Of a stretch of 42,841 bases of DNA, positions 8,000 to 42,841 are shown one piece after another. Made by a program: the position numbers and the translations under genes. The notes below the pieces were generated by a model. It made no database searches. It was not told the origin of the DNA and was given only the letters and a program-made list of their open reading frames with translations. Source of the stretch: a virus (lineage: Duplodnaviria > Heunggongvirae > Uroviricota > Caudoviricetes); the IMG/VR virus record IMGVR_UViG_3300030019_000001; one strand, given 5' to 3'. The first letter of the stretch is position 1. Every line of letters starts with the position of its first letter.

Positions 8000-8887
8000 T
8001 TATTTTTTATTCATATGAAAACAAATCTCGTTTAACCAACCACTTTTATATGATTTAGAATACGCACTAATAGATTTCATATAAAATTCAGATCTAGTCT
8101 TATATTTTAATGCTTCTATTTGACATAATTCTTTTGTCCAATAACCATTTGGTTTTACTAATGGTGTCATATGCAAACATATTTCTTTTAACCATTTATT
8201 TTTTAATGAAATTGTATATGCTGATGCTGATTGTTTTTTAAATTCAACTTTTGTATTAAATTTATTTGCTTCTATTTGACATAATTCTTTTGTCCAATAT
8301 TTTTTACCACCTGTTCCTCCTGTTTTACACTTATTTAAAATTTTCCAATCATTATTTTTATATTTATTAACATAATCCTCTTCTAATATTTTTGATAAAT
8401 AAACATCAATATATTCACTTAATTTTTTAAATTTATAATTATTATTTTTTTGTATATGTTCATAAACTGAGCCTTTTCTTAAATGTTCATTAAATCGTCT
8501 ATCTAAATCACAAGTCAATCCAATATATGCATAGTTATCAGAAAATTCATAAACATAAATACATCTTTTATATAAATCACCCATACACTTCATATGTGAG
8601 CATATTTCATCTATCCATCCATATATTAATGATTTACCATAAATATAACTTGAATTTTTCCTAAATTCATTTCTACTATTAAACTTCAAAGATTCTTTTT
8701 GACAAAAATCTTTTGTCCAGATATATGATTTATTTTTTCTCATATGAGCACAAACATCAAATATCCAATTATTTCTAATTGAGATTCCATATACTTGTTT
8801 ACATTTTATCCTAAATTCTTTTTTAGTTTTATATTTTAATGCTTCTTCAGTGCATTTTTCAATAGTCCATATTTTTTTATCTATCAT
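8000..8887 (-). CDS. GIY-YIG family endonuclease (homing-endonuclease-like) with two N-terminal and two C-terminal ~43-aa W.(K/E).C..E(A/S)LK(Y/F)..R.EF.......Y.....W..EIC.HM repeats
   Basis: Core CIYVYEFSDNYAYIGLTCDLDRRFNEHL (GIY...YIG...R...E). Repeats WTIEKCTEEALKYKTKKEF..., WTKDFCQKESLKFNSRNEF..., WTKELCQIEANKFNTKVEF..., WTKELCQIEALKYKTRSEF... Confidence 0.8.
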   Translation of the reverse strand: MIDKKIWTIEKCTEEALKYKTKKEFRIKCKQVYGISIRNNWIFDVCAHMRKNKSYIWTKDFCQKESLKFNSRNEFRKNSSYIYGKSLIYGWIDEICSHMKCMGDLYKRCIYVYEFSDNYAYIGLTCDLDRRFNEHLRKGSVYEHIQKNNNYKFKKLSEYIDVYLSKILEEDYVNKYKNNDWKILNKCKTGGTGGKKYWTKELCQIEANKFNTKVEFKKQSASAYTISLKNKWLKEICLHMTPLVKPNGYWTKELCQIEALKYKTRSEFYMKSISAYSKSYKSGWLNEICFHMNKK

Positions 8888-9601: not shown

Positions 9602-10594
9602 ATGGACTATAATAAGGATTATTATAAAGATCTAGGATTAAATAAAGATTCATCTGATGAAGAAATCAAAAAGAAATATCGAAAATTAGCATTAAAACAC
9701 CATCCAGATAAAAATCAAGGTGACAAAAATAGTGAGGAAAAATTCAAAATCATATCAGAAGCATATGAAGTATTATCTGACGATACAAAAAAGCAAGAAT
9801 ATGACACAAGAAGTCCTAATGGTAAATCATATTCATCATTCAATTCAAGTTTTTTTGGTGGTGGGCAAGACATATTCTCTCATTTCTTTGGTGAAAATAG
9901 TCCATTTGGTAATTTTTTTAGATCAGAAGAATTCACTGAGCAATTAGATATCAGTATAAATGTCAATATAGATTTTAAGCAAATATACAAAAATGATAAA
10001 ATTACAATAAAATATAAGAAATTTATAAATTGTGATGAATGCGATGGCACAGGATTTGATAAATCTGGAGAATCATATGATTGTGTTGTATGTGATGGTA
10101 CAGGAATAAATAACAACAGAGATTGTGAATATTGTCAAGGAACTGGAAAAATACACAGCGGAAAATGTAAAAAATGTAATGGAGAAAAAGTAATCATAAA
10201 AGAAACAGAACTACTTTTACAAAATATTTCAGAAATTAGGGGATCAAACAGAAATGTTCAATATGGTTATGGTAGTCAATCAAAATACTACAAAGATAAA
10301 GTAGGTAGCCTAATTTTAAATATAAACAGTATAAATAACAGTAAATGTAACATTATAAATAATTATGATTTGATATCAACATTAGACATACACTTTCAAG
10401 ATGCTATTGATGGAAACAAAATAAATTATACACACGTTGATGATTCAAAATTAGAAATAAAATTACCAAATAAAACTAAAAATAACGACACAATAAAAAT
10501 AAAAGAAAAAGGTTTATTGAAGCAGGATGGTAAACGTGCAGATTTATATTTAAAAATAAATATAATCATAGACTATGATAAATTAAATATATAA
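9602..10594 (+). CDS. dnaJ: DnaJ/Hsp40 type-I co-chaperone (J domain, G/F region, four CxxCxGxG zinc-finger repeats, C-terminal domain)
   Basis: [33 protein letters not shown] (HPD), a FGG/FF-rich linker, then [32 protein letters not shown]. Confidence 0.85.
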
Positions 10595-31741: not shown

Positions 31742-32920
31742 TTATTTGAATTTGTTTTTTAATACTTGATATTGAGATTTAACAGAATAATAAGACCTAT
31801 TTAATTTTTTAGCACAACATTTTATTCCTATATGATAATTTTCAATTAAAAAAATAATATCATCTTCTGGCCATGAATTTTTTCTTTTTTTTGCTATCAT
31901 ATGAGAGCATATATCTTTATACCATTCATTTTTAATTGCAGATGCTGCTGCACTACTATTGTTTTTTAGAAAATCATCTTTATAAATATATTTTGATGCC
32001 TCGTATTTACATTTTTCATATGTCCAAAATTTAGCAGATCCTCCTAATGTACTTTTTTTGTTAGTATTTAATAATTTCCAATTATTATTTTTGTATTCAT
32101 TCATATAATATTCTTCCAATTTCTGTGCTTCTGATTTATTAATATAGTCAGTTAATTGTATCAATTTATATTTATTGCTTGCTTTTTGTAAATGTTTGTA
32201 AATTGGACCTTTTTTAATATGCTCCTGCTCTCTAATTTTTATATTATATGTCAATCCAATATATGCACAATTATCATCAAATTCAAAAGCATAAATACAT
32301 CTAAATTCTTTACTACCAATTTTTATCATATGTGAACAGATATCATTAGATATATTATTTACATTTGAAAAATTATAAGCACCTCTATATTTTTTTTGAA
32401 AATCATTTCTACTATTACACTTTAATGCTTCTTCTTTGCATTTATCATAATTCCAATAATTATTAACATAAGTCATATGATTACAAATTTTTTCTATCCA
32501 TTTTTTTGAAATAGATATTCTATATGCACTAGCATCATTTTTTCTAAAATCAGTTCTGGTTAAATATTTTAATGCTACTTCTTGACATTTTTCTATTGTC
32601 CAGTAATTATTAGGTTTATGACTTAAATTCATATGAGAACAAATACTATTTAGCCAATTATTTTTTAATGACTTATTATATGCAGTTGCTTCATTTTTTT
32701 GAAAATCTGATATAGAATTATAATTTAATGCTGCTTCTTGACATTTATTGTGTGTCCAATGTCCTGGAGTATTAATTTTATATTTCATATGTGAACAAAC
32801 AATATTTAAATATTTATTTTTTACACAAGCATTATATGCTAAATTATCTAATTTTTTAAAATCACTTCTATATTCATATTTTAATGCTGCTTTTTGACAT
32901 ATTTCTAATGTCCATTTCAT
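31742..32920 (-). CDS. GIY-YIG family endonuclease (homing-endonuclease-like) with four N-terminal and one C-terminal ~43-aa W..E.C..(A/E)AL.Y..R.DF.K...AY.....W...IC.HM repeats and a C-terminal helix-turn-helix-like tail
   Basis: Core FRCIYAFEFDDNCAYIGLTYNIKIREQEHIKKG. Repeats WTLEICQKAALKYEYRSDF..., WTHNKCQEAALNYNSISDF..., WTIEKCQEVALKYLTRTDF..., WNYDKCKEEALKCNSRNDF..., WTYEKCKYEASKYIYKDDF.... Tail NSWPEDDIIFLIENYHIGIKCCAKKLNRSYYSVKSQY. Confidence 0.8.
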   Translation of the reverse strand: MKWTLEICQKAALKYEYRSDFKKLDNLAYNACVKNKYLNIVCSHMKYKINTPGHWTHNKCQEAALNYNSISDFQKNEATAYNKSLKNNWLNSICSHMNLSHKPNNYWTIEKCQEVALKYLTRTDFRKNDASAYRISISKKWIEKICNHMTYVNNYWNYDKCKEEALKCNSRNDFQKKYRGAYNFSNVNNISNDICSHMIKIGSKEFRCIYAFEFDDNCAYIGLTYNIKIREQEHIKKGPIYKHLQKASNKYKLIQLTDYINKSEAQKLEEYYMNEYKNNNWKLLNTNKKSTLGGSAKFWTYEKCKYEASKYIYKDDFLKNNSSAAASAIKNEWYKDICSHMIAKKRKNSWPEDDIIFLIENYHIGIKCCAKKLNRSYYSVKSQYQVLKNKFK

Positions 32921-33089
32921 AGTTTTTATTGTTTATTTTTTAATAATTTATTATATATTATAAAACAATTAATGTTTTTGATCATATAAAATAAAGTTAA
33001 ACTATAAATATTTTGATTTATGAAATAAATTCATTATATTTGTAAAAATATAAACTTAAAAATAAAATAAAATAATATTAGATAAATAT

Positions 33090-36000
33090 ATGAAAATTGC
33101 TCACTTAGCTGATGTTCACATTAGAAACCTTGAAAGACATGAAGAATATAATGATATTTTTCAAAAAATAATAAAAAAATTACGCAAAATTACACCAGAT
33201 AGAATTGTTATTGTTGGTGATTTATTTGAAAGTTATATTGAAATTTCAAATGAAGCTGAAATTATAGCTGGAAATTTCTTAAATGAATTATCAAAAATTG
33301 CTAAAGTTATAATAGTTCGTGGTAATCATGATATTCGTAAGAAAAATTTAAATAGAATCGACAGCATAGAAACTGTAGTTAAACTAATGAATAATCCAAA
33401 TGTTACTTATTATGATAAAACTGGATTTTATGATGATAAGCAAGATAACAATTTTGTTTGGGTTGTTTATGAACACTCAGATAAAGACAACGATCCATGG
33501 AAAAATATTAAAAAATATGATGGTAAAATATATATTGGGTTATTTCATGACCCAGTTTTAAATGTAACATCAAATACTGGTAAAGTTTTTAATGATGCAA
33601 ACAAGTACAAAAATATGAATTATTTTAATAATAATGATTTTGTGCTAATAGGTGATATCCACAAGCGTCAGTATTTAAGAAATGATAAATCTGCTGCATA
33701 TTGTGGCTCAACTATACAACAATCATATGGTGAAACAATTGAAAATCATGGTTTTTTATTATGGGATATAAAATCACCATCAGATTTTGATGTCACTGAA
33801 TATGATATTGACAATGAACACACTTTCATAAATCTTTATATTGATGAATCATCAGATTATGACAATTTAAATTTGTCTGCTGATAAAATTGGAACAGATA
33901 CTGAAATTAAAGTTCATTGGAAAGAATATTCATCAATTATAAATACTGTTAATGAAAAGAAAATAAGAGATTATATTAAAAATAAATTTAGCACAACTAA
34001 AGTTATTTTTGAAAAAGTTTATTTATACACAGATATATTATCATCAAAAATGCTATCAGAATCAATTGATTTGACTGATACTGAAACACAGAAAGAAATA
34101 TTTAATGAATATTTAGAAGAGCAAAAATACAAAAAAGATGATATTGAATCTATTCTTAAAATTGATGATATAATAAATAGTAGAGTTCAATTGGTAGAAT
34201 GCTTAAAAAATACTGAATGGAGTATTGATAAATTCTGGTTTAGTAATTTTAAATCTTATGGAGATGATAATGTTATAGATTGGGCTGATATTAATGGAAT
34301 TGTACAAATTCATGGAGAAAATCAGGAAGGTAAAACAACTATTTTAGATGCACTTACTTATATTCTTTATGGTAAGACTACGACAACATTAAGTCCTGAA
34401 AAATTTGGAGATTCAAGATATATAAATAACAAAAGAGATTTAGATTATGTTAATGGTGGTGCAATTATTAATTCAAATGGTAATAAATTCGTTATTCAGA
34501 GAAAGACAGAAAGAGTTTGGAATAAGAATCACACGGCATTAACAAGCTGTCCTACATCATTGGATTTTTATAAAAGCGAGAATATTTGTGAAGAAAATAA
34601 ATTAACAGATGAAATTAAAGCTAAGACTCAAAAAGAATTGGACTCTATTTTAGGAGATTTGAAAGATTTTATTAGATTGTCATTCACTAATGCTGATAAT
34701 TTAAATGATTTATTATCAGAAAATAGAAGTGTATTTATGGATAACATCATCAGAGATGCTGGTTATGATATTTTTGAAATTAAATTGAATGAATTTAAAG
34801 AATATAAAAAAGAATTAGTAGAAGAAAAATTAATAGTAAATATTCAAGATTCTGAATCTCGTGTGAAAGAATTGAATACTGAAATTATTGATATTAAAGA
34901 TATTATTGATACTAATAATTCTGATATTGAGAAGCATGAAAAAGAATTATCTGATTATAATACAGATAGAGATAATTTAAATAAAAAATTAAATAATATT
35001 GATTTATCAATGTTAACTTTTAATGAAGATTTAAATTTGAATACCATCAACAATTATGAATCTAAAATTGAAGAATCTAAAATTCAAAGCACAATTTTAG
35101 ATAGAGACATTGATAAATTACCTACTGAATTCGATTCATCTAAACTTGATGAATATAAAATTAAATTGAAGCAAACGAACTTGAAAATTTCTGAACGAAA
35201 AGATGAAATTTCAAATTTGAAAACTTCATTATTAGAATCTGATAATAAAATAGATAAAGTTAATATTAAAATTGATGAATTAAAACAATCTGAAATTAGA
35301 AAAATATCATCAAAAATAAATGCAAATGATTTACAAATTGAAGTTATTAAAAATAATAAATCTAATATCATAAAGGATGAAATAAAAAAAATAACATCAG
35401 AAATTCAAGAATTAGAATTAAATTTAAAAGAATTATCATCTAATATAAAATTATTACAAAAAGATGGAGTTAACGCTAAAAATTCAAATGAGGAATTAGA
35501 TAAAGAAATAGAAACATTCAAAAATTCAAAATCTTGTCCTAGCTGTGGTAGAGATTATGATAAAAATGATCCAAAATATTCAGAACACTTAGCTCATTTA
35601 GAAGATAAAATTAAAAGTCTTGAAATTAAAAAAGAACCAAATTCTTTGATAATTAAAGATTGTATATTAAAGTATAAAGATTTAAAAAATGAATCTATTG
35701 AATGTAATACAAATATTCTTAATTTGGAAGACATGAAAAAAAGGTTAATTCAAGGAGAATACCCTGATGATATATTATCTAAATTGAAAGAAATTGGTAG
35801 CAGTAAGAAGTTGACTCAAGACAATTTAGATTTAAATAAATTAATAGAAAAAATTGAGAATAACATATTTGATGAATCTGAAACATTAAATGAAAATATT
35901 GAGAAAGGGAAAGAACTAATAAAAAACATAGAAAAAGGCAAATTAGATACATCAATTGTAATAAAAAATATTGAGTCTGAATTGAAAAATTTTAATGTTG

Positions 36001-36845
36001 AAGGTATAGATGATGATATTTCAATTGAGGAAACTAAGAAAGATAATTTTGAGTTAAGAAACAGAAAAATGTCAAATAGAGATAATATTATTTTATCAAT
36101 CGAAAATTTTAATTTTAAAATAAAAGAACTAAAATTAGAAATAGAAAAATATCAAGAATATAAAGTTAAAATAGATGAAAATAAAATTATTCAATTATCA
36201 ATAGATGATGTGGATAATAATATTAAAGTCGTTAAAGAACAAATAAAAAATTTATCACAAATAAATATAGAAATGGAAAAAAATATTATACTCAAAGAAA
36301 ATGATATTTTTATAATTTCAACTAAGATAAAAAAATATTTAAAACAAAAGAAAAAAGATGAGTTATTAAAGGAGTATCAAAAATGTATTAGTCGTGATGG
36401 ATTACCTACTTTTTTATTGAAAAAGTCTATTCATTTAATTAATAAAGAATTGAATGAATTATTAATAAATGTTAATTTTACATTATTTTTTGATGATAAT
36501 TTAAATTTAAGGCTTAGTGCAGATGATAGGCTAGATTCCAGTCAAAATGCAATTGAAAGTTCTGGAAAAGAAAGAACATTTTGTGCTCTTGCATTGAAGA
36601 TAGCATTACGACAAATAAATGTCAAATCAAAATCTACGTTTATTGTATTGGATGAAATTATGGGTAAATTAATTGATGGTAAAAAAACAAAATCTGTTCA
36701 GCAATTTTTAGAATTTATTGATGAGTTGAAAAATAAAGTAAATAAAATTGTAATTATTGAACAGGTGCATAGTATAAATTTTGATGCATCAATTGAAGTT
36801 GATAAAGACGAAGAATTAGTTTCTCACTTAGAATTAGTTTATTAA
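33090..36845 (+). CDS. Single-chain Mre11/SbcD nuclease fused to a Rad50/SbcC ABC-ATPase with a coiled coil and CxxC zinc hook (1251 aa)
   Basis: Phosphoesterase motifs HLADVH, VGDLFE, RGNHD, GLFHD, IGDIHKRQ in the first ~230 aa. Walker A GENQEGKTTILDALTYILYGKT. Long K/E/N-rich coiled coil with zinc hook SKSCPSCGRDY. Signature-like SSGKERTFCALAL, Walker B FIVLDEIMG, H-loop VIIIEQVHS. Confidence 0.8.
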   Translation: MKIAHLADVHIRNLERHEEYNDIFQKIIKKLRKITPDRIVIVGDLFESYIEISNEAEIIAGNFLNELSKIAKVIIVRGNHDIRKKNLNRIDSIETVVKLMNNPNVTYYDKTGFYDDKQDNNFVWVVYEHSDKDNDPWKNIKKYDGKIYIGLFHDPVLNVTSNTGKVFNDANKYKNMNYFNNNDFVLIGDIHKRQYLRNDKSAAYCGSTIQQSYGETIENHGFLLWDIKSPSDFDVTEYDIDNEHTFINLYIDESSDYDNLNLSADKIGTDTEIKVHWKEYSSIINTVNEKKIRDYIKNKFSTTKVIFEKVYLYTDILSSKMLSESIDLTDTETQKEIFNEYLEEQKYKKDDIESILKIDDIINSRVQLVECLKNTEWSIDKFWFSNFKSYGDDNVIDWADINGIVQIHGENQEGKTTILDALTYILYGKTTTTLSPEKFGDSRYINNKRDLDYVNGGAIINSNGNKFVIQRKTERVWNKNHTALTSCPTSLDFYKSENICEENKLTDEIKAKTQKELDSILGDLKDFIRLSFTNADNLNDLLSENRSVFMDNIIRDAGYDIFEIKLNEFKEYKKELVEEKLIVNIQDSESRVKELNTEIIDIKDIIDTNNSDIEKHEKELSDYNTDRDNLNKKLNNIDLSMLTFNEDLNLNTINNYESKIEESKIQSTILDRDIDKLPTEFDSSKLDEYKIKLKQTNLKISERKDEISNLKTSLLESDNKIDKVNIKIDELKQSEIRKISSKINANDLQIEVIKNNKSNIIKDEIKKITSEIQELELNLKELSSNIKLLQKDGVNAKNSNEELDKEIETFKNSKSCPSCGRDYDKNDPKYSEHLAHLEDKIKSLEIKKEPNSLIIKDCILKYKDLKNESIECNTNILNLEDMKKRLIQGEYPDDILSKLKEIGSSKKLTQDNLDLNKLIEKIENNIFDESETLNENIEKGKELIKNIEKGKLDTSIVIKNIESELKNFNVEGIDDDISIEETKKDNFELRNRKMSNRDNIILSIENFNFKIKELKLEIEKYQEYKVKIDENKIIQLSIDDVDNNIKVVKEQIKNLSQINIEMEKNIILKENDIFIISTKIKKYLKQKKKDELLKEYQKCISRDGLPTFLLKKSIHLINKELNELLINVNFTLFFDDNLNLRLSADDRLDSSQNAIESSGKERTFCALALKIALRQINVKSKSTFIVLDEIMGKLIDGKKTKSVQQFLEFIDELKNKVNKIVIIEQVHSINFDASIEVDKDEELVSHLELVY

Positions 36846-36849
36846 AAAC

Positions 36850-36883
36850 AAAAAAAGAGTAGATTTTTATCTGCTCTTTTTTT
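36850..36883. terminator. Hairpin AAAAAAAGAGTAGAT-tttt-ATCTGCTCTTTTTTT (15-bp stem with one G:U pair) between the convergent stops at 36843-36845 and 36885-36887
   Basis: Read directly; it looks like a classic intrinsic terminator with a trailing T-run and is also symmetric. Confidence 0.65.
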
Positions 36884-36884
36884 A

Positions 36885-37286
36885 TTAAACTATTTCAATT
36901 GTGATTTTGATTCCTTTTTTTTGTGCTGCTATCATATTGTCACATACTTTATTCATCCAAAATCTAGAATTTGTAACTTCTCCTTTAACTTTATTTTCTC
37001 CTACAATTACACAACCTGATGTAGATGTTTCATTTATTCCATTATGAATACGAATACCATCAAATCCTGGTACATCTATTAATAAAGGTAGTAATCTTTT
37101 GAATCTATTTGACATGTTTACAATTACTTTATATTTTCCAATTGGAATTGCAGTTTTGTCTTTTATTTTAATATTTCTAACAACATCTTCAATAGTGTCA
37201 CAAATATATATACCGTTTTCATATAGTTTACCTATTGTATATTTATCATTGTGAAATATTCTACATAATTTATATTCTAAATTCAT
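36885..37286 (-). CDS. Hypothetical protein (133 aa) with a His/Cys motif IRIHNGINETSTSGCVIVG reminiscent of L,D-transpeptidase-like (YkuD-fold) cysteine hydrolases
   Basis: ORF with an ATG; identification rests on a weak motif only. Confidence 0.45.
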   Translation of the reverse strand: MNLEYKLCRIFHNDKYTIGKLYENGIYICDTIEDVVRNIKIKDKTAIPIGKYKVIVNMSNRFKRLLPLLIDVPGFDGIRIHNGINETSTSGCVIVGENKVKGEVTNSRFWMNKVCDNMIAAQKKGIKITIEIV

Positions 37287-40102: not shown

Positions 40103-40396
40103 ATGGAGAAAATAAAAACAAAATCATTGGAAGACATTTTATCAGAAAATGGTATTTCTAGTAATACTGAAGAAGAGTATAAATTAATATTGTGGAATGA
40201 TGATGTGAATTCATTCGAATGGGTAATAACTTGTCTAATGGCATATTTAAAATTTTCATTTGAAAGAGGTCAAGCATCAGCTTATAATGTTCATCTTATA
40301 GGTAAAGATATTATTAAAACTGGCTCAAAAGAATCATTGGAGCCTTACAAAAAATTATTAGAAGAGAAAGGATTATCTCTCACAATAGAACAATAA
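40103..40396 (+). CDS. clpS: ClpS-like ATP-dependent Clp protease adaptor (N-degron recognition)
   Basis: YKLILWNDDVNSFEWVITCLMAYLKFSFERGQASAYNVHLIGKDIIKTGSKESLEPYKKLLEEKGLSL aligns with the ClpS core [24 protein letters not shown]...A.QLML.VH..GKA. Confidence 0.8.
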   Translation: MEKIKTKSLEDILSENGISSNTEEEYKLILWNDDVNSFEWVITCLMAYLKFSFERGQASAYNVHLIGKDIIKTGSKESLEPYKKLLEEKGLSLTIEQ

Positions 40397-40680: not shown

Positions 40681-42841
40681 ATGAATTACTCGAAAGAAGT
40701 AGAAGAAGTTATTAAACTAAGTAAGGGAATTGCAATTATTATTCAATCTAACACAATCAGGCCTGAGCATTTATTCTTAGCAATGATAGATGAGGAATAT
40801 TCTGAAGCATCTAATATAATGAGAGATTTAAATCTCAATATTAATGCTATCAAATCAACAATTCGTGATTGGTCTAAAGATTTACAAAAACAGAATGGTT
40901 TGAATTCTCTTAGAAAGAATGCTTCTATTCCATTAGAATTAGAAACTGAAAAAATTCTAAAAGAATCTGTGGTTTTTGCCAAATCAATGGACTCAGATGA
41001 AGTTTGTATTGAGCATGTTTTTTATGCAATATTGGATAATAATAATAACCTTGTTTCAGATTTATTTAATAAATCACCTGAAATTTTAAGAAGTTTAAAA
41101 AACAAATTAAAAAATGAAGAAGATGAACTTAATATTAATGATGAATTAGAAAATAGTAACATGGACGAAGAACAAGAACAAGAAGTAAAAGGAAAGAGCA
41201 AATCAAAAACTAAATTGATTGATCAATTTGGTACAAATCTGACCAATCTTGCAAAAGAAGGTAAACTTGATCCAGTAGTAGGACGTGCAGATGAAATTAA
41301 AAGAATCTCACAGATTTTATCAAGACGTAAGAAAAACAATCCTGTTTTGGTAGGAGAACCTGGAGTAGGAAAATCTGCTATTGTAGAAGGATTGGCTCAG
41401 TTAATCGTAGATGGACTTGTTCCTGAAAATTTACAGGATAAGAAAATTATTACTCTTGATATGGGTTCTTTAGTAGCAGGAACTAAATATCGTGGTGAAT
41501 TTGAACAAAGATTAAGAGGTATTGTCAAAGAAATGGAAGAAAATCCTGACATTATTCTTTTTATTGATGAAATTCATACTATTATAGGTGCTGGCTCAGC
41601 CCAAGGTTCACTCGATGCTTCCAATATGTTGAAACCAGGATTAGCAAGAGGTACATTTAGATGTATTGGTGCTACTACACTTGAAGAATATCGTAAGTAT
41701 GTAGAAAAAGATGCTGCATTAGAACGTAGATTTCAGAAAGTTGTTGTTGAGGCAACCAGTAAGTCAGAAACTTTAGAAATTCTGAAAAATATAAAAAAAC
41801 AATATGAAGATCATCACAAAGTTACATATACTGATGATGCATTAGAAGCTTGTGTTAATTTGTCTGGTAAATATATATCAGAAAAATTCTTTCCAGATAA
41901 GGCAATTGATGTTCTTGATGAGGCTGGCGCTATGGTTCACGTTAATGGTACAAGTGCTATTCCTGTAAAAATTGTTGAACTCAGCAAAAAAATAAAAATA
42001 TCTATTGTGGAAAAACTTGATTGTATTTCAAATCAGAAATATGAAATTGCTGCTGAACATAGAGATAATGAAAAACAATGGAAATCTGAACTTGAAACTG
42101 AAAAAGAAACATGGAGTCAATCACATTCTGATAATCGTCCTTTGGTAACACAACAGGATATAGCTGAAGTTGTTGCTCTTATAACAAAAATACCTGTAGA
42201 TAATGTTTCTGTTGATGAAAACAATAAGCTTAAATATATGGCTAATAAAGTTAAAACTATTGTTATTGGACAAGATGAAGCAGTTGACAAAATAGTTCAA
42301 TCAGTTAAGAGATCAAGAGTTGGTATAAATAGTCATGATAAACCAGTTGGCACATTTATTTTCTCAGGACCTACTGGAGTAGGTAAAACATATCTTGCTA
42401 AAATTATGGCAAAGGAGTTATTTGGTTCTGAAGATGCTATGATTAGAATTGATATGAGTGAATTTATGGAAAAATTCTCAGTATCTAGATTAGTAGGAGC
42501 ACCTCCTGGATATGTTGGATATGAAGATGGTGGTAAATTAACTGAAGCAGTTAGACGTAAGCCTTATTCTATTATTCTTCTTGATGAAATTGAAAAAGCT
42601 CACCCTGATGTTCAAAATATCCTTCTTCAAGTGTTGGATGATGGTGTATTGACAGATAGTAATGGACGTAAAGTCGATTTTAAAAATACTATTATTGTTA
42701 TGACAACAAATGCTGGTTCACGAAAATTGAAAGATTTTGGTACTGGTATTGGATTTGGACTTAATAAAAATAATCAAGACTCTAAAAATTCAGTTCTTAA
42801 AAAAGAATTAGAAAAAGTTTTTAGTCCTGAATTTTTAAATC
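40681..42841 (+). CDS. clpC: ClpC/ClpA-class Hsp100 unfoldase, partial (at least 720 aa; the 3' end is beyond the window): Clp N-domain repeats, AAA+ D1, a short middle domain with a UVR-like motif, and AAA+ D2 with an IGF ClpP-docking loop
   Basis: [15 protein letters not shown] (Walker A, D1), [15 protein letters not shown] (Walker B), [15 protein letters not shown] (UVR-like), [14 protein letters not shown] (Walker A, D2), [26 protein letters not shown], and GTGIGFGL. It is not in the ORF track because it runs off the window. Confidence 0.9.

Follow-up and report, generated by a model that had tools for sequence, protein, structure and literature searches.

A single-chain Mre11-Rad50 protein in a probable huge bacteriophage and its counterparts in other large phages

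Domain architecture of the fused protein

The window analyzed here, a stretch of 42,841 nucleotides of viral DNA (Caudoviricetes; IMG/VR record IMGVR_UViG_3300030019_000001), contains a long plus-strand gene whose product combines an Mre11/SbcD nuclease and a Rad50/SbcC ATPase in one polypeptide chain (Table 1). The gene is a single open reading frame (ORF) from ATG to TAA, comprising 1251 amino acids (aa) and a stop codon, with zero in-frame stops, and in this it agrees with an earlier reading of the same DNA made without database searches (below, the sequence-only reading). The G+C content of the window DNA is 22-29%. When the window was shuffled 50 times, the longest run without a stop reached 135 codons, and therefore an ORF of 1251 codons is not due to chance.

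The nuclease occupies the N-terminal part. Pfam Metallophos (calcineurin-like phosphoesterase) covers residues 1-192 (E 2e-11), and the top NCBIfam match of the protein is SbcD. The PDB search with the single sequence matched SbcD (7dog) and Rad50 (3aux). With a profile of a 27-member family, the same two structures were matched at 4e-14 and 6e-17, respectively, and E. coli SbcC (6s6v_C) at 5e-12. The complete set of Mre11/SbcD (COG0420) metal-ligand motifs I-V, that is, DxH, GDxx(D/H), GNH(D/E), H, and GHxH, was recovered in the alignment of the 27 family sequences, to which all conservation values below refer. Hence all five phosphoesterase motifs listed by the sequence-only reading are present, motif V having the form GDIH. 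D8, G43-D44, G78-N79-H80, H153, and H191 are invariant, while H10, D81, and D189 are conserved in at least 90% of the sequences. The two deviations from the consensus are conservative: motif II ends in E47, and D189 stands where motif V normally has its first histidine.

The ATPase half begins with the N-terminal lobe of Rad50, where Pfam SMC_N/AAA_29 matches lie at residues 379-440, and it closes with the C-terminal lobe. Invariant residues are G409, N411, G414, K415, T513, and Q514 in the former and S1158, G1159, D1188, and E1189 in the latter. The protein has the combination expected of Rad50/SbcC, with Walker A, Q-loop, signature, and Walker B distributed over two lobes, and also the long antiparallel coiled coil with a CxxC hook. 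The zinc hook, which the sequence-only reading had placed inside the coiled coil, is indeed there, between the two arms: C816 and C819 are invariant, also in the distant homolog from Sphingomonas phage PAU, and the family profile matches structures of the isolated Rad50 zinc hook (6zff_A at 1.1e-7 and 1l8d_A at 7.5e-7).

The sequence-only reading was right about Walker A, the hook, the signature, and Walker B, but inexact about the H-loop. The position of the switch histidine is occupied by glutamine (IVIIEQ1225VH), while at least 90% of the family members have histidine there (consensus IIIEH). The glutamine is common to the window protein and its 85%-identical homolog P0002; histidine is found in the 73%-identical homolog P0003, in an ortholog from a 735-kb phage, and in PAU gp288. 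H1227 corresponds to a neighboring position that is variable across the family. The change from histidine to glutamine is a lineage-specific substitution in a clear family member, and we see no ground in it for exclusion from Rad50/SbcC.

Table 1. Coordinates of the fused gene, its domains and motifs, and other features of the window (P0055 is the homolog used for structural modeling; pLDDT, predicted local distance difference test)
Feature	Position	Strand	Basis
Whole gene, single-chain Mre11/SbcD-Rad50/SbcC	33090..36845	+	No internal stop; domain matches; full-length homologs
Mre11/SbcD nuclease core, aa 1-227	33090..33770	+	Pfam Metallophos; alignment; Foldseek to SbcD/Mre11
Motif I DVH, D8-V-H10	33111-33119	+	27-sequence alignment
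Motif II GDLFE, G43-D-L-F-E47	33216-33230	+	27-sequence alignment
Motif III GNHD, G78-N-H-D81	33321-33332	+	27-sequence alignment
Motif IV H153	33546-33548	+	27-sequence alignment
Motif V GDIH, G188-D-I-H191	33651-33662	+	27-sequence alignment
Beta-rich capping domain of the Mre11 part, aa 233-312	33786..34025	+	Secondary structure of the P0055 model, mapped to the window
Flexible tether from capping domain to helix-loop-helix, aa 312-330	34023..34079	+	Model pLDDT <50
Helix-loop-helix, aa 331-344 and 349-365, presumed Rad50-binding	34080..34184	+	Two model helices
Fusion joint, linker of ~10 residues, aa 366-375, from helix-loop-helix to first Rad50 strand	34185..34214	+	Model secondary structure
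Rad50 N-terminal ATPase lobe, aa 376-575	34215..34814	+	Pfam SMC_N/AAA_29; PDB Rad50 and SMC heads
Walker A GENQEGKT, aa 409-416	34314-34337	+	Alignment
Q-loop T513-Q514	34626-34631	+	Alignment
Antiparallel coiled coil, aa 585-1099, arms of ~231 and ~280 residues	34842..36386	+	Long model helices
Zinc hook CPSC, C816-P-S-C819	35535-35546	+	Alignment
Rad50 C-terminal ATPase lobe, aa 1105-1251	36402..36842	+	Alignment to PDB Rad50 3aux
Signature SGKE, aa 1158-1161	36561-36572	+	Alignment
Walker B FIVLDE, aa 1184-1189	36639-36656	+	Alignment
H-loop position occupied by Gln, Q1225	36762-36764	+	Alignment blocks
Putative hairpin between convergent genes, AAAAAAAGAGTAGAT-TTTTT-ATCTGCTCTTTTTTT	36852..36884	.	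Read from sequence, weak annotation
DUF5675 protein, downstream neighbor	36885-37286	-	E 2.6e-27
Collagen-like (G-T/S-x triplet) protein, 546 aa	37712-39352	-	Phage tail-fibre PHROGs
GIY-YIG endonuclease-like gene	31742-32920	-	Domain matches
GIY-YIG endonuclease-like gene	8000-8887	-	Domain matches
ClpS homolog	40103-40396	+	Pfam ClpS; same gene assigned ClpS in assembly L009
ClpA/C-type AAA+ unfoldase-like ORF, at least 720 aa, runs off the end	40681-42841	+	Translation read by eye
DnaJ with J domain, zinc-finger, and C-terminal domain	9602-10594	+	Domain matches
1417-aa ORF, GTG start	19911-24164	+	No Pfam or PHROG match

Structural model and the joint between the halves

An AlphaFold2 model was built on P0055, a 1183-aa homolog 61% identical to the window protein, from an alignment of 46 sequences, and its elements were mapped onto the window. 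The mean pLDDT of the model is 82 and its predicted template modeling (TM) score (pTM) is 0.47. The top Foldseek match is Rad50 of the Chaetomium Mre11-Rad50-Nbs1 complex (7zr1 C/D). About 410 N-terminal columns align to full-length E. coli SbcD (6s6v_A/B, TM 0.65-0.66); other matches of the nuclease part are Mre11 of Thermotoga maritima (3tho_B, TM 0.63), Mre11 3thn (TM 0.68), and SbcD 7dog_A (TM 0.68) and 4m0v_A (TM 0.65). The remaining part aligns to Rad50 and SbcC chains, including 7yzp_C, and 6s85 is also among the matches. Both the nuclease fold and the capping domain are seen in the model, that is, as judged on the 61%-identical homolog. The order of the halves, Mre11 and then Rad50, which the sequence-only reading had proposed, is supported by Pfam, PDB, profile, motif, and Foldseek matches alike.

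The same reading had located the domain boundary at about 33780-34250. This region does contain the joint, although it is not an empty linker, as most of it is taken up by the Mre11 capping domain and a helix-loop-helix (HLH). Between these two elements, residues 313-320 of P0055 form the sole segment with pLDDT below 50, and no regular secondary structure is predicted until residue 331. The position of the HLH corresponds to that of the HLH of T. maritima Mre11 treated by Yoshida, Claverie and Ogata (Virol J 2011, PMC3175470), and it presumably binds the Rad50 part at the base of the coiled coil.

Yoshida et al. (2011) described Mimivirus R555 as an Mre11/Rad50 fusion and noted that the order Mre11-then-Rad50 suits the T. 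maritima complex, where the C-terminus of the former lies ~28 Å from the N-terminus of the latter, a distance to be spanned by 9-12 residues. The window protein follows the R555 scheme, with one ORF and a short linker after the HLH; the linker length of ~10 residues agrees with the 9-12 residues predicted from the 28 Å gap in 3QG5. In the model, the joint would thus sit about ten residues past the very element that anchors Mre11 on Rad50 in split complexes. Since the joint follows the HLH anchor and the flexible tether is retained, the fusion should constrain the geometry of the complex little, and the nuclease presumably still swings between its resting and cutting positions. What the fusion would fix is the stoichiometry, at 1:1 in place of co-translating two subunits, rather than the geometry. 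The model therefore lends no support to the suggestion of the sequence-only reading that a covalent fusion constrains the complex.

Nature of the enzyme

We regard the protein as very probably a true Mre11-Rad50 (SbcD-SbcC) enzyme in one chain, encoded by a huge phage of the Mahaphage group (the origin of the window is considered below). Its chain would run from the nuclease core through the capping domain, the tether, the HLH, and the joint of ~10 residues to the N-lobe, then through a coiled coil of ~510 residues to the C-lobe. Two such chains would make the equivalent of the M2R2 complex, with dimerizing nuclease domains, two ATPase heads engaging upon ATP, and coiled coils linked via the zinc hook. 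An enzyme of this kind is expected to recognize DNA ends and hairpins and then to cut or resect them. By analogy with T4 gp46/gp47, such end processing would serve both the repair of the very large phage genome and its recombination-dependent replication.

The split pairs T4 gp47/gp46 and E. coli SbcD/SbcC share with the window protein both catalytic modules and the fold (Foldseek matches 6s6v, 7yzp, and 6s85), and also the presumed role in end processing for recombination-dependent replication and repair (PMC3175470; PMC7824862). They differ in being encoded as two polypeptides by adjacent genes and, in the case of T4 gp46, in a much shorter coiled coil (PMC3175470). Homologs of SbcC and SbcD have been listed among the near-universal core recombination genes of jumbo phages (Iyer et al., 2021; PMC7824862).

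Several observations weigh against this assignment. The switch histidine is replaced by glutamine in the window protein and in its 85%-identical relative P0002; the signature reads SGKE instead of SGGE; and the D-loop aspartate is not evident in the window protein. Together, these three features suggest that the ATPase kinetics may be altered relative to canonical Rad50. The pTM of the model is just 0.47, and docking of the nuclease on the ATPase head and formation of the dimer are presumed. In the literature that could be searched, we found no biochemical or other experimental work on a fused protein. Finally, the window represents 42.8 kb of the genome, and a second, split SbcCD could be encoded elsewhere.

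An SMC-like nuclease with another role, such as degradation of the host genome, defense, or counter-defense, in the manner of Lamassu-, Pbe- or Dnd-like systems, is an unlikely alternative. It could draw on PADLOC matches to PbeC, LmuB, and DndD (E from 1e-7 to 3e-3), on the Lamassu and Wadjet SMC-like chains in the Foldseek list, and on the non-canonical Q1225, which hints at changed ATPase kinetics; moreover, T4 gp46/47 also contributes to the breakdown of host DNA. However, the PADLOC matches are much weaker than those to Rad50, SbcC, and SbcD. The stronger ones begin in the generic P-loop and N-lobe, from residue ~380 on, and the weaker ones, to LmuB, lie in the coiled coil. No full-length match to a PADLOC profile of an anti-phage SMC-like protein was found, the best one (E 1.1e-07) covering residues 381-663 and about 280 of 651 profile positions. 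By contrast, the CxxC zinc hook, the Mre11-type nuclease with its capping domain and HLH, and the top Foldseek matches are specific to Mre11-Rad50. Partner genes of Lamassu, Pbe, or Dnd systems are not adjacent either, the neighbors being a GIY-YIG and a DUF5675 gene.

Origin of the window

Three large proteins of the window have their best matches in genomes of huge phages. A 735,411-bp genome of an "uncultured phage" (LR756501) encodes a fused ortholog of 1202 aa that is 38% identical to the window protein from end to end. The same genome and LR756503 provide the best matches to a 1417-aa protein (37% identity over 96% of the query) and to a 717-aa protein (32% over 82%). For the 717-aa protein, the only other match was a weak one in the 636-kb phage LR756504. 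Weaker matches of the 1417-aa protein were found in phages of 635-642 kb and then in Prevotella (Lak) and Tenacibaculum/Chryseobacterium jumbo phages; matches to the latter two groups are limited to this protein and were not seen with the 717-aa one. Al-Shayeb et al. (2020; PMC7162821) group their genomes of 634, 636, 642, and 735 kb with the Lak phages as the "Mahaphage" clade, for which they predict hosts among the Bacteroidetes.

Because all three large proteins match huge-phage genomes best, we assign the window, by protein similarity, to a huge phage of the Mahaphage group with a predicted Bacteroidota host. Other phage-like genes of the window encode a RuvC-like resolvase, a polynucleotide kinase, a NUDIX protein, GIY-YIG endonucleases, DnaJ, ClpS, a ClpA/C-like ATPase, and a collagen-like tail fibre. 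Pfam and PHROG scans of the 44 other ORFs of the window revealed no capsid or terminase hallmark. A weak "portal" PHROG match (6.7e-9), for which the ORF of origin was not identified, is not used here as evidence. No tRNA was found by a scan of the window.

Our first guess had been a Mimivirus-like giant virus, given the low GC content, the collagen repeats, and the paper on R555; it was rejected because the three large proteins match huge phages best. We now regard it as very unlikely that the gene belongs to the nucleocytovirus genome of such a giant virus of eukaryotes, with R555 as its direct ortholog. A G+C content of 22-29%, the collagen-like repeats, and the length of the source contig (up to 711 kb) are compatible with a giant virus, the published prototype of the fusion is Mimivirus R555, and a metagenome-assembled genome (MAG) of a giant virus has a fused homolog with 29% identity across the junction. 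Against this stand the huge-phage matches, which for two queries cover at least 96% at 37-38% identity and for the third 82% at 32%, and the PHROG matches, among them the RuvC-like resolvase, the polynucleotide kinase, and the collagen-like tail fibre. In addition, no nucleocytovirus hallmark was found among the at least 45 ORFs of the window, its genes are tightly packed and often overlap, and the hairpin downstream of the fused gene resembles a bacterial intrinsic terminator.

Reality and distribution of the fusion

The subunits are separate proteins in E. coli (SbcCD), in T4 (gp46/gp47), and in the eukaryotic Mre11-Rad50 complex, and the sequence-only reading was correct on this established point. 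Split sbcD/sbcC gene pairs being the rule in bacteria and T4, one could suppose that a frameshift or a missed stop in sequencing or assembly had joined two adjacent genes, one sbcD-like and one sbcC-like; moreover, in Staphylococcus K-like phages, tblastn matched the nuclease part alone (query aa 1-226/275), with annotations such as "recombination exonuclease A" or "SbcD-like subunit" that are suggestive of a separate nuclease gene. Such an artefact is practically excluded, because the identical 1251-aa protein is present on ten separately assembled contigs from different assemblies (four of them of 0.2-1 Mb, the longest 711,471 bp), because more than 100 full-length homologs keep the frame continuous down to 38% identity, and because the junction is conserved. 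These homologs (1220-1250 aa, 38-85% identity) span the query end to end with the same layout. From the nuclease core to the Rad50 N-lobe (aa 226-376), the mean identity is 51%, compared with 36-39% in the coiled coil, and the family alignment of this segment has few indels and is essentially gap-free. The fused frame is likewise seen in cultured phages whose genomes are finished, and in the 735-kb genome, which is curated. Therefore, the single-chain fusion of Mre11/SbcD and Rad50/SbcC is real, and not a product of a frameshift or of assembly.

Four cultured phages carry the fusion under names that do not reveal it: Sphingomonas phage PAU (gp288, 1301 aa) and Tenacibaculum phage PTm1 (ORF-075, 1318 aa), both annotated as "metallo-phosphoesterase"; Microcystis phage Mel-JY01 (WWT39521, 1066 aa), annotated as "AAA domain containing protein"; and Listeria phage LMTA-57 (gp101, 1009 aa), annotated as "recombination exonuclease". 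In PAU, Mel-JY01, and LMTA-57, Pfam identifies an N-terminal Metallophos domain and an SMC/AAA_23 head from residue 385-430. In PTm1, it detects only the AAA_23/SMC_N head (from ~432) and Rad50_zn_hook, and the nuclease part rests on a tblastn match starting at query residue 1 and on the annotation. All four share the architecture of the window protein, with the Rad50 N-lobe starting at ~380-434, and PAU gp288 aligns over the full length, the CxxC hook included. On the other hand, their identity to the window protein is just 22-30%, and PAU retains the canonical GHIH motif V and the H-loop histidine. The LR756501 ortholog is closer, sharing the motifs and the length class as well as the end-to-end similarity; other genes of that genome are similar to window genes, too. 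It differs in a shorter coiled coil and in the canonical H-loop histidine, and its record carries no annotation.

PHROGs contains a family of the fused protein with 1376 positions (phrog_35725, E 9e-42). We searched the nuclease module and linker (aa 1-376) against a library of 1.84 billion representative proteins and obtained 533 cluster representatives at E <= 1e-30. Among the best 150 of these 533, 111 are at least 900 aa long, and at least 87 of the 111 have Walker A between positions 350 and 520. The other 39 are shorter, with scattered lengths, and several of them enter the Rad50 N-lobe before ending, so that they look like fragments and not like standalone SbcD. Thus, the fused form predominates among the closest relatives of the window nuclease. 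In IMG/VR, a profile scan recovered further full-length fused genes, located on viral contigs between 17 and 597 kb in length, and also the copy in the giant-virus MAG.

Some members of the family appear to carry inteins. A homolog of 1552 aa (P0079) has an Intein_splicing and LAGLIDADG insertion within the nuclease domain, and two others (P0159 and P0160) break after the "GK" of Walker A into "C(V/L)...T-E-I", a typical intein start.

Twelve further fusions besides R555 were reported by Yoshida et al. (2011), from Bacillus phage 0305phi8-36, Clostridium and Deferribacter plasmids, and several eukaryotes. The environmental homologs of R555 were numerous, with an enrichment in viral fractions and a linkage to phage genes, primases among them, and their phage origin was already suspected (PMC3175470). 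In agreement with this linkage, Mel-JY01 and LMTA-57 both have primase genes adjoining their fused gene. Among 72,556 plasmids searched by tblastn, none matched the fused protein; therefore, the plasmid fusions of the 2011 paper are not its close relatives, which fits the non-monophyly described there.

Homology to a giant-virus member extends across the junction. The locus in the giant-virus MAG (GVMAG-M-3300024336-7, L045) shares 29% identity with query aa 3-427 (E 9e-33). It reads through the junction in one frame of at least 1106 codons and has GNHD, Walker A, and both motif forms described for R555, GDxxH (as GDIVH) and GDIH. R555 itself resembles the window protein in being one ORF with an Mre11-like N-terminus, a Rad50-like C-terminus, and a long coiled coil, in having a region in between whose size matches that of the capping and HLH domains together with a short linker, and in having aspartate for the first histidine of GHxH (Asp242 in R555, PMC3175470). 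The differences are its length of 1351 aa and GDxxH in motif II (PMC3175470), compared with GDLFE in the window protein. Furthermore, R555 is a nucleocytovirus protein while the window protein is assigned to a phage, and the nearest giant-virus copy compared here is the above 29%-identical homolog.

A broader scenario seems doubtful to us. It holds jointly that the R555-type fusion is primarily a phage invention, ranging from Herelleviridae over jumbo phages to Mahaphages, where it would be the default, and was passed to giant viruses, and that Q1225 could give a slow-hydrolysing, long-lived, ATP-clamped form suited to a genome of ~0.7 Mb. The first part was already suggested in 2011, and the second rests on one substitution in two sequences.

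The fusion is real yet ordinary: it was described in 2011, and a large family of big phages usually has the gene in this form. Hence, the novelty implied by the sequence-only reading does not hold, given the 2011 publication, phrog_35725, LR756501, the four cultured phages, and the 111 long proteins among the best 150 representatives; in this survey of relatives, the fusion proved to be routine in the virus group. As a discovery it has little value, being both long known and widespread in large phages. The practical consequence is rather that a complete single-chain Mre11-Rad50 goes under names such as "metallo-phosphoesterase" or "AAA domain containing protein" or is left unnamed, and the annotation of huge phages can be corrected in this respect. 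A natural single-chain enzyme of ~1200 aa with fixed stoichiometry could also suit structural and single-molecule work, and the natural histidine-to-glutamine variant of the H-loop offers a ready comparison with the histidine-bearing 73%-identical relative.

Flanking regions and other genes of the window

The 170 bp upstream of the ATG at 33090 are nearly pure A/T, and at 33040-33089 there is no purine run resembling a Shine-Dalgarno sequence. Shine-Dalgarno use is rare in Bacteroidota, and its absence here would fit a host of this type. A scan for sigma-70 promoters was uninformative in the AT-rich window, with 54 sites against 48.9 expected. Downstream of the fused gene, the hairpin has an 8-bp stem (with one G-T pair) and a 5-nt loop, with A7 on one side and T7 on the other. 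It resembles an intrinsic terminator acting in both directions, although a consensus terminator scan called none in the window, this hairpin included.

The GIY-YIG gene immediately upstream of the fused gene, on the opposite strand, contains a module of ~48 aa ending in "ICSHM", in four N-terminal copies and one C-terminal copy. Mel-JY01 likewise has a GIY-YIG gene near its fused gene. The DUF5675 gene is kept beside the fused gene in two other assemblies with the identical protein.

ClpS, the ClpA/C-like ORF, and DnaJ together make up a protein-quality-control set. The C-terminal part of the 1417-aa ORF is conserved in the 635-642-kb phages, and shorter segments are found in Lak and Bacteroidota jumbo phages; this ORF looks like a clade marker. 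The collagen-like gene contains tandem arrays of 9, 18, and 99 bp. Its counterpart in assembly L009, which carries the identical Mre11-Rad50, is just 483 aa long, compared with 546 aa in the window, and this suggests either a repeat-length polymorphism or an assembly collapse.

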